From the IMG/VR virus record IMGVR_UViG_2585427739_000005: a stretch of DNA of 8,765 nt; one strand, given 5' to 3'. This DNA is from a virus. Its lineage: Duplodnaviria > Heunggongvirae > Uroviricota > Caudoviricetes. Every line of letters begins with the position of its first letter. Position 1 is the stretch's first letter. Below are positions 2,474 to 7,424 of the stretch, one piece after another. Position numbers and translations under genes: made by a program. Below the pieces are notes generated by a model that made no database searches, was not told where the DNA came from, and saw only the letters and a list, made by a program, of their open reading frames with translations.

Positions 2474-3229
2474 ATGATTCACTACCACGGTGGGCCTATT
2501 ACTCCTGATACGTGCGCAATGAGAGCATGGAAAGGGCGACATGCGTTTATCAGTTTTGCGCATTCAGGCCAGATCAATCTCGCGGCTGAATACTGTCAGT
2601 AGTTCGCGCTGGACAACGGTGCATTCACCGCCTGGAAAGCAGCTGGCAAAAACAAAATCGACTGGAGCGATTACTACGAGTTTGTTGCTCGCTGGAAGAA
2701 TCACCCAGGATTCGATTTTGCCATTATCCCGGATGTTATTGATGGCGGAGAGGAGGAAAATGATGCGCTTCTGAATGAGTGGCCTCACGGAAAACTAGCT
2801 GGCGTTCCAGTGTGGCACATGAATGAAAGTGACGAGCGATTTATTCATTTGTGCAATGAGTTTCCGCGAGTGGCTATCGGTAGTTGTGGCGACTATGACG
2901 TAAAGCGCCCAACTCTTGCGGTAGCCAGAATGAAAGACCTGATTCGTCACATTGTTGATGGGCATGGTCAGCCGGTTACGAAACTACATGGATTGCGCAT
3001 GTTAAATCCGCTGATATTCACAAAATTACCCTTAGCCAGCGCAGATAGTACGAACGTCGCTCGAAACATCGGTATTGATAAAGCCTGGTCTGGGGCTTAT
3101 GCACCTGCAAGTAAAGAGACACGCGCAGCATTAATGGTAGAACGGATTGAGGCACACAATAGCCCTGGTTCTCTTGCGTATTGTGAACAACGCGACCGCT
3201 TTGAAATGCAATTGCAACTAGCAGTTTAA
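2474..3229 (+). pseudogene. TGT-like (queuine/7-deazaguanine transglycosylase, DpdA-like) gene interrupted by an in-frame amber codon at 2600-2602
   Basis: Seen: strong AAAGGAGAG Shine-Dalgarno before ATG 2474; one frame runs 2474..3229 with a single TAG after codon 42 (...EYCQ*FALDNG...), preceded by CAG. Inference: AIIPDVID, VAIGSCGD and ASADSTNVARNIG occur in the same order as recalled TGT motifs MIFDEC, YAVGGLAVGE and DCVMPTRNARNG. Family assignment is from memory, not searched. Confidence 0.5.
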
Positions 3230-3239
3230 GGACTAACAA

Positions 3240-3815
3240 ATGACCACTATTACCAAAGAACGTATTGAATTGTTCATTAAAAATCCGCTTGAAAACGGGC
3301 TTACTCGTGACGAACAAATGGAACTGGCACGAATTGCACTGGCATCACTGGGAGCAGAACCTGTAAGCCAAACTTACAACTTGCCAGAATTAATCGAAGG
3401 CATGGAGGTTTCCATTGATGTAAGCACTTGTGATGCGGATTTAGGTAATCGCTATTTCGGTACCGTCACCGAGGCGTTAGAACTTGATACTGCCAAGAAT
3501 GGTTACATCCTCCTGGTTCAGGACGCAGAGCCAAACTTCGATATAAATGGCAATTCTCCGGTAACTCCGGATGGTTGGGTTATAGTGCCGAAGAAACTAA
3601 CCGCTGAGAACGGCGCTAAGGGTGTGCTATCCGGTGAATTTTCAGAAACTACGTTTATAAGCTGCCCGGAATGCTTTGGTGATGATGATTGCGAAACTTG
3701 TGACGGCAGCGGAAGAATCGAAATCAAGGTTCCAGTCAGTTGGACAACTATCAAAACTATTTGGGCTAAAGGGTGTGAGTACTTTTCAATAGTAGCACCG
3801 CAGCAAGATGGGTGA
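3240..3815 (+). CDS. Hypothetical protein (191 aa) with a C-terminal DnaJ-like cysteine motif CPECFGDDDCETCDGSGR
   Basis: AAGGA Shine-Dalgarno 7 nt upstream of ATG 3240. CxxCxGxxxCxxCxGxG resembles the DnaJ cysteine-rich zinc-binding repeat. A KpnI site at 3459-3464 is absent from recalled lambda. Function unknown. Confidence 0.7.
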   Translation: MTTITKERIELFIKNPLENGLTRDEQMELARIALASLGAEPVSQTYNLPELIEGMEVSIDVSTCDADLGNRYFGTVTEALELDTAKNGYILLVQDAEPNFDINGNSPVTPDGWVIVPKKLTAENGAKGVLSGEFSETTFISCPECFGDDDCETCDGSGRIEIKVPVSWTTIKTIWAKGCEYFSIVAPQQDG

Positions 3816-3902
3816 TGAAAACAAGTATTTATAACTTAAAAGCATTAAAAAATCGCTTATAGATCAAAAGAAATCTACGTCAAATATTACTATATTTCAA
3901 TG

Positions 3903-3941: not shown

Positions 3942-4184
3942 ATGTTCAAACGCTGCATCGCCAAGTGTGGAAGCACACCTGACATCCAAGCTTTTATTAA
4001 TGAAGATGGTAAGCTTGTTGTTGAGAGGAGTGGTCCTTTTATTAGCAAACAACTTATCATTACCTCTCCAGCGGAGATGGCCGGGGAATGGATAGTTTCT
4101 GAACCAGAGGAGTTGCACATCCCGCTTCCTTATGGCCCTCAGGGACTGATTTATAACCGTTATGTTCAGAAGGAGGCGGGTTGA
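3942..4184 (+). CDS. Hypothetical small protein (80 aa; MFKRCIAKCGSTPDIQAFINEDGKLVVERSG...)
   Basis: GGGGGGA Shine-Dalgarno 6 nt upstream of ATG 3942. The track ORF 3900..4184 is the same frame from an ATG that lies inside the candidate promoter. HindIII sites at 3988 and 4011 are absent from recalled lambda. Confidence 0.5.
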   Translation: MFKRCIAKCGSTPDIQAFINEDGKLVVERSGPFISKQLIITSPAEMAGEWIVSEPEELHIPLPYGPQGLIYNRYVQKEAG

Positions 4185-4443
4185 CAATGTCAGGCATAAC
4201 ATCGCCGAGAAATCGAAAGAAAAACAGAACAAGGTAAACGTTGACCTTGCAGCATCAGGCATGGAGTACAGAGAGCGCCTTAACATACCTGTTATCACTG
4301 AGCAGGTATCATGAGAGCAACCTGAGCACTCACGCGAGTATTTCATGGAGCGCATCAGATACTATCGCGAGCAGTCGTTAAACATGCCCAAGGGAAGCAA
4401 CCCATGGTATATCGATATGGATGAACAGAACGCCAAGAAGTAA
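4162..4443 (+). pseudogene. 282-bp ORF at the position of lambda ea8.5, interrupted by an in-frame TGA at 4312-4314
   Basis: Seen: ATG 4162 to TAA 4441-4443 is one frame with a single internal TGA. Length and distance from xis match recalled lambda ea8.5 coordinates to within 1 bp. The translation has no Cys, and NcoI (4402) and ClaI (4411) sites not recalled in lambda lie inside it, so identity with ea8.5 is uncertain. Confidence 0.35.
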
Positions 4444-4739: not shown

Positions 4740-4958
4740 ATGTACTTGACACTTCAGGAGTGGAACGCTCGCCAGCGACGCCCAAGAAGCCTTGAAACAG
4801 TTCGTCGATGGGTGCGCGAATGCAGGATATTCCCTCCTCCGGTTAAGGATGGAAGAGAATATCTGTTCCACGAATCAGCGGTAAAGGTTGACTTAAATCG
4901 ACCAGTAACAGGTAGCCTTTTGAAGAGGATCAGAAATGGGAAGAAGGCGAAGTCATGA
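4740..4958 (+). CDS. xis: Excisionase Xis (72 aa)
   Basis: Translation MYLTLQEWNARQRRPRSLETVRRWVRECRIFPPPVKDGREYLFHESAVKVDLNRPVTGSLLKRIRNGKKAKS matches recalled lambda Xis; 23-bp overlap with int as in lambda. Confidence 0.95.
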   Translation: MYLTLQEWNARQRRPRSLETVRRWVRECRIFPPPVKDGREYLFHESAVKVDLNRPVTGSLLKRIRNGKKAKS

Positions 4959-6006
4959 GCGCCGGGATTTACCCCCTAACCTTTATATAAGAAACAATGG
5001 ATATTACTGCTACAGGGACCCAAGGACGGGTAAAGAGTTTGGATTAGGCCGAGACAGGCGAATCGCAATCACTGAAGCTATACAGGCCAACATTGAGTTA
5101 TTTTCAGGACACAAACACAAGCCTCTGACAGCGAGAATCAACAGTGATAATTCCGTTACGTTACATTCATGGCTTGATCGCTACGAAAAAATCCTGGCCA
5201 GCAGAGGAATCAAGCAGAAGACACTCATAAATTACATGAGCAAAATTAAAGCAATAAGGAGGGGTCTGCCTGATGCTCCACTTGAAGACATCACCACAAA
5301 AGAAATTGCGGCAATGCTCAATGGATACATAGACGAGGGCAAGGCGGCGTCAGCCAAGTTAATCAGATCAACACTGAGCGATGCATTCCGAGAGGCAATA
5401 GCTGAAGGCCATATAACAACAAACCCTGTCGCTGCCACTCGCGCAGCAAAATCAGAGGTAAGGAGATCAAGACTTACGGCTGACGAATACCTGAAAATTT
5501 ATCAAGCAGCAGAATCATCACCATGTTGGCTCAGACTTGCAATGGAACTGGCTGTTGTTACCGGGCAACGAGTTGGTGATTTATGCGAAATGAAGTGGTC
5601 TGATATCGTAGATGGATATCTTTATGTCGAGCAAAGCAAAACAGGCGTAAAAATTGCCATCCCAACAGCATTGCATGTTGATGCTCTCGGAATATCAATG
5701 AAGGAAACACTTGATAAATGCAAAGAGATTCTTGGCGGAGAAACCATAATTGCATCTACTCGTCGCGAACCGCTTTCATCCGGCACAGTATCAAGGTATT
5801 TTATGCGCGCACGAAAAGCATCAGGTCTTTCCTTCGAAGGGGATCCGCCTACCTTTCACGAGTTGCGCAGTTTGTCTGCAAGACTCTATGAGAAGCAGAT
5901 AAGCGATAAGTTTGCTCAACATCTTCTCGGGCATAAGTCGGACACCATGGCATCACAGTATCGTGATGACAGAGGCAGGGAGTGGGACAAAATTGAAATC
6001 AAATAA
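4936..6006 (+). CDS. int: Tyrosine site-specific integrase Int (356 aa), lambda type
   Basis: Full-length match to recalled lambda Int (MGRRRSHERRDLPPNLYIRNNGYYCYRDPRTGKEF...REWDKIEIK) with a few apparent substitutions. Recalled lambda BamHI, NruI and NcoI sites all present at the expected offsets. Confidence 0.97.
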   Translation: MGRRRSHERRDLPPNLYIRNNGYYCYRDPRTGKEFGLGRDRRIAITEAIQANIELFSGHKHKPLTARINSDNSVTLHSWLDRYEKILASRGIKQKTLINYMSKIKAIRRGLPDAPLEDITTKEIAAMLNGYIDEGKAASAKLIRSTLSDAFREAIAEGHITTNPVAATRAAKSEVRRSRLTADEYLKIYQAAESSPCWLRLAMELAVVTGQRVGDLCEMKWSDIVDGYLYVEQSKTGVKIAIPTALHVDALGISMKETLDKCKEILGGETIIASTRREPLSSGTVSRYFMRARKASGLSFEGDPPTFHELRSLSARLYEKQISDKFAQHLLGHKSDTMASQYRDDRGREWDKIEIK

Positions 6007-6140: not shown

Positions 6141-7424
6141 GTGAACACATTTTCAGTTTCCCGTCTGGCGCTGGCATTGGCTTTTGGCGTGACGCTGACC
6201 GCCTGTAGCTCAACCCCGCCCGATCAACGTCCTTCTGATCAAACCGCGCCTGGTACCTCTTCTCGCCCGATTCTGTCGGCAAAAGAAGCGCAGAATTTCG
6301 ATGCTCAACACTATTTTGCATCCCTGACACCAGGTGCTGCAGCGTGGAATCCTTCCCCGATTACCCTGCCTGCGCAACCTGACTTTGTTGTCGGCCCGGC
6401 GGGCACTCAAGGTGTAACGCATACCACGATTCAGGCGGCGGTAGATGCGGCAATTATCAAGCGTACCAACAAGCGCCAGTATATTGCCGTGATGCCTGGT
6501 GAGTATCAGGGAACGGTATATGTCCCTGCCGCTCCGGGTGGAATTACTCTGTACGGTACAGGTGAAAAACCGATTGATGTGAAGATTGGGCTTTCCCTTG
6601 ATGGTGGCATGAGCCCTGCCGACTGGCGTCACGACGTCAACCCGCGCGGCAAATATATGCCAGGTAAACCAGCGTGGTATATGTACGATAGCTGCCAGAG
6701 CAAACGCAGCGACAGTATCGGTGTTCTCTGCTCTGCGGTCTTCTGGTCACAAAACAATGGCCTGCAACTGCAAAATCTGACCATCGAAAACACGCTGGGC
6801 GATAGCGTAGATGCAGGTAACCATCCGGCGGTGGCACTGCGTACTGATGGTGACCAGGTACAGATTAACAACGTTAACATTCTCGGTCGTCAGAACACCT
6901 TCTTTGTCACCAACAGCGGTGTGCAGAACCGTCTGGAAACGAATCGTCAGCCGCGTACGCTGGTGACCAACAGCTACATTGAAGGGGATGTGGATATCGT
7001 TTCTGGTCGCGGCGCAGTGGTGTTCGATAACACCGAATTCCGCGTGGTGAACTCACGTACTCAGCAAGAAGCGTATGTGTTTGCACCGGCTACGCTGTCC
7101 AACATTTACTACGGTTTCCTCGCCGTAAACAGCCGTTTCAATGCTTTCGGTGATGGTGTGGCGCAACTGGGCCGCTCGCTGGATGTTGATGCCAATACCA
7201 ACGGTCAGGTGGTGATCCGTGATAGCGCCATCAACGAAGGTTTTAACACGGCTAAACCGTGGGCCGATGCGGTGATCTCTAATCGTCCGTTTGCGGGTAA
7301 TACCGGCAGCGTAGATGATAACGACGAAATACAGCGCAATCTGAATGACACTAACTACAACCGCATGTGGGAATACAATAACCGCGGCGTGGGTAGTAAA
7401 GTGGTTGCAGAGGCGAAGAAGTAA
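6141..7424 (+). CDS. ybhC: Pectinesterase-family lipoprotein (E. coli YbhC-like putative acyl-CoA thioesterase), 427 aa
   Basis: GTG start with GGAG Shine-Dalgarno; signal peptide with lipobox LTAC (MNTFSVSRLALALAFGVTLTACSS); pectinesterase-like motifs HPAVAL and GDVDIVSG. Location beside attL fits recalled E. coli gene order (ybhJ-ybhC-att lambda-ybhB). Confidence 0.88.
   Translation: MNTFSVSRLALALAFGVTLTACSSTPPDQRPSDQTAPGTSSRPILSAKEAQNFDAQHYFASLTPGAAAWNPSPITLPAQPDFVVGPAGTQGVTHTTIQAAVDAAIIKRTNKRQYIAVMPGEYQGTVYVPAAPGGITLYGTGEKPIDVKIGLSLDGGMSPADWRHDVNPRGKYMPGKPAWYMYDSCQSKRSDSIGVLCSAVFWSQNNGLQLQNLTIENTLGDSVDAGNHPAVALRTDGDQVQINNVNILGRQNTFFVTNSGVQNRLETNRQPRTLVTNSYIEGDVDIVSGRGAVVFDNTEFRVVNSRTQQEAYVFAPATLSNIYYGFLAVNSRFNAFGDGVAQLGRSLDVDANTNGQVVIRDSAINEGFNTAKPWADAVISNRPFAGNTGSVDDNDEIQRNLNDTNYNRMWEYNNRGVGSKVVAEAKK

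Follow-up and report, generated by a model that had tools for sequence, protein, structure and literature searches.

The window, which is the whole stretch of DNA analysed here, is the entire 8765-bp contig JOQS01000101.1 of the draft Escherichia coli assembly GCA_000714215.1. It comprises the distal part of an early-left (pL) operon together with the right end of a lambdoid prophage integrated at the lambda attachment site. It contains, in order, the C-terminal part of bet, exo, the genes of a DUF1317 and a DUF1382 protein, a small open reading frame (ORF), a TraR/DksA-like gene, an Ea22-like gene and a dpdA-like gene, the subject of this study. On the 3' side of the latter follow a 191-aa ORF, small ORFs, a theta-like pseudogene, xis, a lambda-type int, the host gene ybhC and the host gene ybhJ, which is cut by IS2. 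We found that the dpdA-like gene is interrupted by an amber codon ahead of all its presumed catalytic residues. Its features are given below. Conservation refers to three progressively broader alignments of the protein family (A1, A2 and A3), of which A3 (63 sequences) joins the family with Iggy-type DpdA, and strands of the fold refer to a structural model of the read-through protein.

2463–2467, + strand: Shine-Dalgarno sequence AGGAG, 6 nt 5' of the ATG, read from the sequence.
2474–3229, + strand: dpdA-like gene of 251 codons, assigned to the phage 'DpdA-only' group, with its frame broken at codon 43.
2474–2602, + strand: region translated in a non-suppressing host, with a 42-residue N-terminal peptide without any active-site residue as the expected product.
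2600–2602, + strand: in-frame amber codon TAG (codon 43), ancestrally TCG (Ser43), with a C-to-A transversion at 2601, from comparison with strains FORC064 and IAI1.
2612–2614, + strand: codon of D47 (LDNGAF), 3' of the TAG, invariant in A1, A2 and A3, at the C-terminal end of strand β-3 in the model.
2732–2734, + strand: codon of D87 (IPDVI), 3' of the TAG, invariant in A1 and at least 90% conserved in A2.
3044–3046, + strand: codon of D191 (SADST), 3' of the TAG, invariant in A1 and A3 and at least 90% conserved in A2, at strand β-8 of the model.

The frame starts with the ATG at 2474 and ends with a TAA at 3227–3229. On read-through it comprises 251 sense positions, the TAG being the sole internal stop, directly preceded by a CAG at 2597–2599. 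The TGA of the Ea22-like gene (2470–2472) lies 1 nt ahead of the ATG, so the two genes are translationally coupled. An earlier sequence-only reading had described a well-initiated ORF with a Shine-Dalgarno sequence, coupled to the upstream stop and carrying a single TAG after a CAG; this observation was confirmed, while the interpretation built on it was partly supported. The start codon was confirmed by the N-terminus MIHYHGGPI, which is invariant in the protein family. In relatives the gene is found as an intact 756-bp coding sequence (WP_000582234.1), differing from the window in one base. Judged by this homologous coding sequence and by the large family described below, the frame represents a genuine gene, not an ORF that arose by chance.

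The read-through protein matched the PHROGs family phrog_887, 'queuine tRNA-ribosyltransferase', with an E-value of 3.7e-103. The family has at least 7855 proteins in a 90%-clustered database, typically about 250 aa long; with clustering at 50% identity, 1563 clusters are found at E≤1e-3. With tblastn, 132 phages among 50,697 phage records were matched. The identity was 93% for BTP1 and SPN3UB (E about 1e-160), 68% for SfI (E 4e-112), 37.5–37.9% for SEN1 and SW9 (E about 4e-41), 38% for MED16 (E 2e-34), 36% for 7-11 (E 2e-24) and 26% for Iggy DpdA (E 1e-5). When the family profile was compared by hhalign, MED16 gp38 (100%, E 3e-61), 7-11 gp032 (100%, E 4e-48) and Iggy DpdA (98.6%, E 6e-16) were all recovered with the conserved motifs in register, these being D-x-G-A-F, H, H-G and S-x-D-S for Iggy DpdA. 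Alignment to phage DpdA proteins, which the sequence-only reading had named as a check, thus bore out the assignment. A copy of the gene encoding a 93% identical protein was also seen in the 1719-bp record OR850331.1, 'Staphylococcus phage SA 1298 Kay', which is probably a mislabelled or contaminant record.

The proteins of BTP1, SPN3UB, SfI, HK106, SEN1 and 7-11 are given as DpdA without other pathway genes in Supplementary Data 1 of Hutinet et al. 2019 (PMC6884629). The same study describes a 'third group' of 76 DpdA-only phages and a cluster of singleton DpdA proteins that is confined to phages of gamma-proteobacteria. The gene belongs to this already catalogued solitary phage DpdA group and is nothing new in kind. 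Literature searches found no study of a lambdoid DpdA and no paper mentioning the accession of the assembly or of its sequencing run.

General profile collections did not recognise the protein. The read-through protein gave no match in Pfam (E≤1), NCBIfam or PADLOC (E≤10). A match to the tRNA-guanine transglycosylase (TGT) family of Pfam (PF01702), also proposed as a check, was not obtained: the cut-off of PF01702 or of the NCBIfam tgt model was not reached, and there was no match even at E≤1 or 10. This test does not discriminate, because the DpdA proteins of Iggy, MED16 and 7-11 also lack a TGT match. Searches of PDB sequences by phmmer with the protein and by hmmsearch with profiles of A1, A2 and A3 returned noise only, with no TGT and no DpdA, and hhalign against E. 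coli Tgt gave no match. When the PDB was searched with Foldseek, the hits were generic TIM barrels, TGT ranking 36th. In 71 divergent family members scanned with Pfam, only fusion partners were detected, and no TGT or DUF6610 match. In two proteins, P0240 (421 aa) and P0263 (399 aa), the DpdA-like segment was joined to a Dam-type N6-adenine methyltransferase or a phage baseplate hub (GPD) domain. They may be chimeric gene calls instead of real fusions, because both partner domains are partial.

The three motifs that had been taken as TGT-like correspond to the conserved D47, D87 and D191. In the bacterial DpdA, Asp95, at the β3/α3 position, is the general acid/base and Asp256 is the nucleophile (PMC10164549). 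By alignment and by position in the model, D47 is presumed to be the general acid/base, as the counterpart of Asp95 of Salmonella Montevideo DpdA, and D191, which aligns with SCDSS of Iggy DpdA, is presumed to be the nucleophile corresponding to Asp256. The structure prediction placed D47 and D191 at the ends of strands β-3 and β-8, as in the bacterial DpdA. D87 is a candidate for the base-recognising Asp (Asp130 of the bacterial enzyme). D87 and H115, the candidate counterparts of Asp130 and His181, are both conserved in the family; the alignment of D87 with the Asp of Iggy is ambiguous, the two being offset by 3 residues. In the model, F51, four residues past D47, corresponds to Phe99 of the bacterial DpdA, and G136-S137 after β-6 to its Gly-rich substrate loop. 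The (β/α)8 barrel fold of the TGT superfamily was found for the read-through or ancestral protein, and the two catalytic Asp residues after β-3 and β-8 are present in that protein only. We concluded that the protein of 251 residues encoded by the intact gene has a compact TIM barrel and belongs to the tRNA-guanine transglycosylase superfamily.

The amber codon had been interpreted as a classical CAG-to-TAG mutation, which our comparison refuted. The gene differs from that of E. coli FORC064 in one base and from that of IAI1 in two, and base 2601 is the shared difference, being C in both relatives and A in the window. The event was therefore a change of TCG (Ser43) to TAG. In a set of 80 viral loci, drawn from A1 and consisting of close relatives only, codon 43 encodes Ser in every case (TCA 39, TCG 35, TCT 4, TCC 2), and this use of four synonymous codons points to purifying selection on the residue. 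Intact copies were found in 79 of the 80 loci. The only other disrupted copy, in the IMG/VR locus L069, has a stop at codon 170 of the orthologue, so occasional independent pseudogenisation of the gene does occur. A 71-mer across the amber site matched 200 complete E. coli genomes and was exact in none of them, the TAG being present in 0 of 200. The exact 40-mer with the TAG was absent from the genome, metagenome and viral collections scanned.

Translation stops after 42 residues, ahead of all catalytic residues and with no usable restart, so that the allele is, as read from its sequence, null in an ordinary host. The copy has no uninterrupted frame able to yield the enzyme and is a pseudogene of the family. 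Restart 3' of the TAG was considered and rejected: the next in-frame start is codon 113, which has no Shine-Dalgarno sequence, and a protein begun there would be without D47 and D87. Likewise we rejected programmed read-through or recoding, as the TAG is conserved nowhere. Besides the amber codon, four private substitutions were seen against three close relatives (positions 1229, 1999, 3310 and 3960). One is synonymous (DUF1317 gene) and three are missense, namely Q51H in the TraR/DksA-like gene, G24D in the 191-aa ORF and T7A in an 80-aa ORF. That these private changes are mostly non-synonymous fits relaxed selection, in what are small numbers.

The surroundings of the gene are those of a lambdoid prophage, and the neighbouring features that define them are the following.

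2065–2472, + strand: ead/Ea22-like gene, upstream neighbour of the dpdA-like gene (Pfam PF13935, E 2.6e-17), at the same position in phage BTP1.
4740–4958, + strand: xis, from a gene call with Pfam Exc and from the annotation of relatives.
4936–6006, + strand: lambda-type int, from a gene call with Pfam Phage_integrase and from the annotation of relatives.
6141–7424, 3' of int: host ybhC, from the annotation of relatives.

The succession of xis and int and then host ybhC shows where the prophage ends, at the lambda attachment site. In BTP1, a functional Salmonella phage, the early-left genes are arranged as N, ral, cIII, kil, erf, abc, eaE, Ea22-like, orthologue, eaA, xis and int, and the 93% identical orthologue occupies the slot that matches the dpdA-like gene of the window. 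Related E. coli prophages contain IS21 and IS2 insertions and several pseudogenes, and we concluded that this prophage lineage was already decaying.

Some further observations were made on the neighbours. The 191-aa ORF directly 3' of the dpdA-like gene (3240–3815, + strand) has no Pfam match and contains a zinc-finger-like motif, CPECFGDDDCETCDGSG (CxxC...CxxC). In relatives only its first 138 bp are annotated by RefSeq, as a partial pseudogene, and the full ORF is collinear there. The HolE-like gene (DNA polymerase III theta; 4162–4443, + strand) has an in-frame TGA at 4312–4314. This internal stop is common to the relatives, where the gene is annotated as a pseudogene, and is therefore older than the amber mutation. 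At the contig end (8067–8765) IS2, an IS3-family element with an rve domain, interrupts host ybhJ, which is intact in strain 582.

It had also been proposed that a DpdA encoded alone could use host preQ0 from the queuosine pathway, and the searches agreed with such a solitary state. Among the genes called in the window no preQ0-pathway Pfam family was present. With tblastn, the FolE, QueD, QueE and QueC proteins of Iggy gave no match in the window, BTP1, strain 582 or the 80 viral loci. When the same four preQ0-synthesis proteins were used together with the QueD of Caulobacter phage DMCA, no que gene was found within 10 kb in the 80 viral loci (1.06 Mb), in a search of limited sensitivity that also missed the Pfam-detected QueD domain of locus L006. 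We therefore regard the gene as solitary: no phage-encoded preQ0 pathway was found, and the enzyme would depend on preQ0 of the host. The gene context of more distant members was sampled through phage records only. In the metagenomic phage-like contig Ga0452210_009018 (L006), QueD and a DpdA-like segment are fused (2840–3847). In DMCA (L010, 4705–5726) the gene of QueD, a 6-carboxytetrahydropterin synthase, adjoins a family member. These two independent contexts tie the family to 7-deazaguanine chemistry. Annotation and Pfam records around the two QueD/DpdA-like genes showed no QueC, QueE or FolE.

We compared the family with the known systems. It is the same as that of the solitary DpdA proteins of the Salmonella phages BTP1, SPN3UB, SEN1 and 7-11, the Enterobacteria phages SfI and HK106 and the Pantoea phage MED16 (PMC6884629; PMC8306585), which are about 250 aa long and have no accompanying preQ0 genes. 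The window copy alone has the Ser43-to-amber change, whereas every directly compared relative is intact. The DpdA1 enzymes of 9g, CAjan and Iggy, shown in vivo to be DNA preQ0 transglycosylases, share a homologous core with the family at an identity of only about 25%, but they are longer (312 aa in Iggy) and lie inside a folE-queD-queE-queC cluster, which the window family lacks. They replace 16–32% of G, while the measured DpdA-only phages have 0.02–0.13%, which is about 100 to 1000 times less dense. The bacterial DpdA of S. Montevideo (PDB 7UI4) is more distant, with 15% identity and no detectable sequence match, but with fold and catalytic geometry in common. It is 413 aa long, carries four insertions, among them the large Zn-binding Ins8, and depends on the DpdB ATPase (PMC10164549). 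In the 251-residue family we found no CxCxxC...H motif, no Ins8-like insertion and no conserved Cys set that could form such a site. Nor was there a PADLOC DpdA match (E≤10) or a dpdB or dpdC gene nearby, the neighbours being lambdoid early genes. Compared with bacterial TGT and archaeal ArcTGT (PF01702) the window protein is much shorter, lacks the Zn subdomain and has DNA as its presumed substrate; fold and catalytic geometry are common to them as well. The nearest solved structure is Cap10 of type IV CBASS (PDB 9NTN), which conjugates 7-deazaguanine to the N-terminus of the CD-NTase and works with Cap9.

The sequence-only reading had left two outcomes for the gene, a dead allele or one expressed in an amber-suppressor host. 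The first stands, as the allele is null and private. The second supposes a conditional gene, in which the amber codon is kept via a suppressor of the supE or supD type and full-length DpdA is made in such a host only. The TAG is indeed a single clean substitution in a gene that is undamaged otherwise, and the window is an isolated 8.7-kb contig with the host tRNA complement outside its scope. However, an undamaged remainder is equally expected of a very recent null mutation, and suppressor tRNAs are rare in natural isolates. As the ancestral residue is Ser and not Gln, a supE host would make an S43Q protein, changed at a site where conservation among close relatives is at least 90%, and a Ser-inserting suppressor alone would restore the wild type. 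None of the relatives compared has the amber codon, and its absence from the 200 genomes, the 80 viral loci and every scanned collection gives no sign of maintenance. We consider suppressor dependence extremely unlikely. Another explanation, that the strain truly has TCG and the A at 2601 stems from an error of sequencing or consensus or from a change in the sequenced culture, draws on the allele being unique to one draft assembly. The Logan assembly of run SRR1186499, which was built independently, matches the window at every position over 6359 bp, the TAG among them; the two assemblies probably rest on one read set, which leaves some room for such an artefact. But two different assemblers arrived at the same base, so the TAG is no error of one of them, and the four other private substitutions on the contig look like ordinary divergence. 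At normal Illumina depth a consensus rarely contains substitution errors. An artefact is thus very unlikely.

A further alternative concerns the family and not the allele. The protein could be a Cap10-like protein deazaguanylase, a tRNA enzyme or a non-catalytic anti-defence protein, with 'DpdA' being a label at the level of the fold only; Cap10 is, as described, the closest structure. Against this, no Cap9 (QueC-like) or CD-NTase gene was found in the window or related loci. The sequence matches are to phage DpdAs that act on DNA, with both catalytic Asp residues invariant, and the fusion to and adjacency of QueD point to 7-deazaguanine chemistry. Furthermore, both DpdA-only phages that were tested with preQ0-producing hosts carry dADG. 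We therefore judge a function other than DNA modification to be quite unlikely.

The gene is very probably a recently inactivated solitary dpdA of lambdoid/P22-like temperate Enterobacterales phages, encoding a preQ0 enzyme of the type known from its homologues and lost in ordinary prophage decay. E. coli makes preQ0 via FolE, QueD, QueE and QueC. By analogy, the intact gene would be expressed from the early leftward operon after prophage induction or infection, and the enzyme would take host-made preQ0 and swap selected guanines in double-stranded phage DNA by double displacement. D191 would act as nucleophile, giving a covalent Asp191-deoxyribose (enzyme-DNA) intermediate, and D47 as acid/base. 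What would result is sparse marking with 7-deazaguanine, in the form of dPreQ0 or, once hydrated, dADG. This mechanism is drawn from homologues outside the lambdoid clade, modified DNA being known for relatives at no more than 36–38% identity. The DpdA of 9g alone inserts host-derived dPreQ0 into plasmids in E. coli, and the DNA of two DpdA-only phages contains dADG at 50 (7-11) and 354 (MED16) per 10^6 nt (PMC6884629; PMC8306585). The C-to-A change at 2601 ends translation after 42 residues and is best taken as ordinary decay, by mutation, of a gene that the resident prophage keeps repressed. Most simply, the amber codon reflects a loss of function that arose very recently and in this strain only, the gene being silent in the lysogen and under no selection there.

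The DNA of MED16 was not protected from the restriction enzymes tried (Simoliuniene et al. 2021, PMC8306585). It is conceivable, if unlikely, that the solitary DpdA of temperate lambdoid/P22-like phages writes a sparse, sequence-specific mark with a role beyond broad anti-restriction. Such a mark could mimic the self-mark of bacterial Dpd systems, or act as an epigenetic or packaging signal, and the amber allele would then be a natural knock-out about a dozen single-nucleotide polymorphisms away from the intact prophages of strains 582 and FORC064.

In itself this is one more decayed prophage gene of little importance, and what is new is confined to a null allele in a single draft assembly. 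The protein is nevertheless a very common one in enterobacterial prophages and is still 'hypothetical' in PGAP/RefSeq, though counted as DpdA in the literature since 2019. Being invisible to Pfam, NCBIfam and PADLOC, it is missed by pipelines and by automated tests that rely on Pfam TGT. The intact and null natural alleles in near-identical prophages could serve studies of the role of solitary DpdA in temperate phages.
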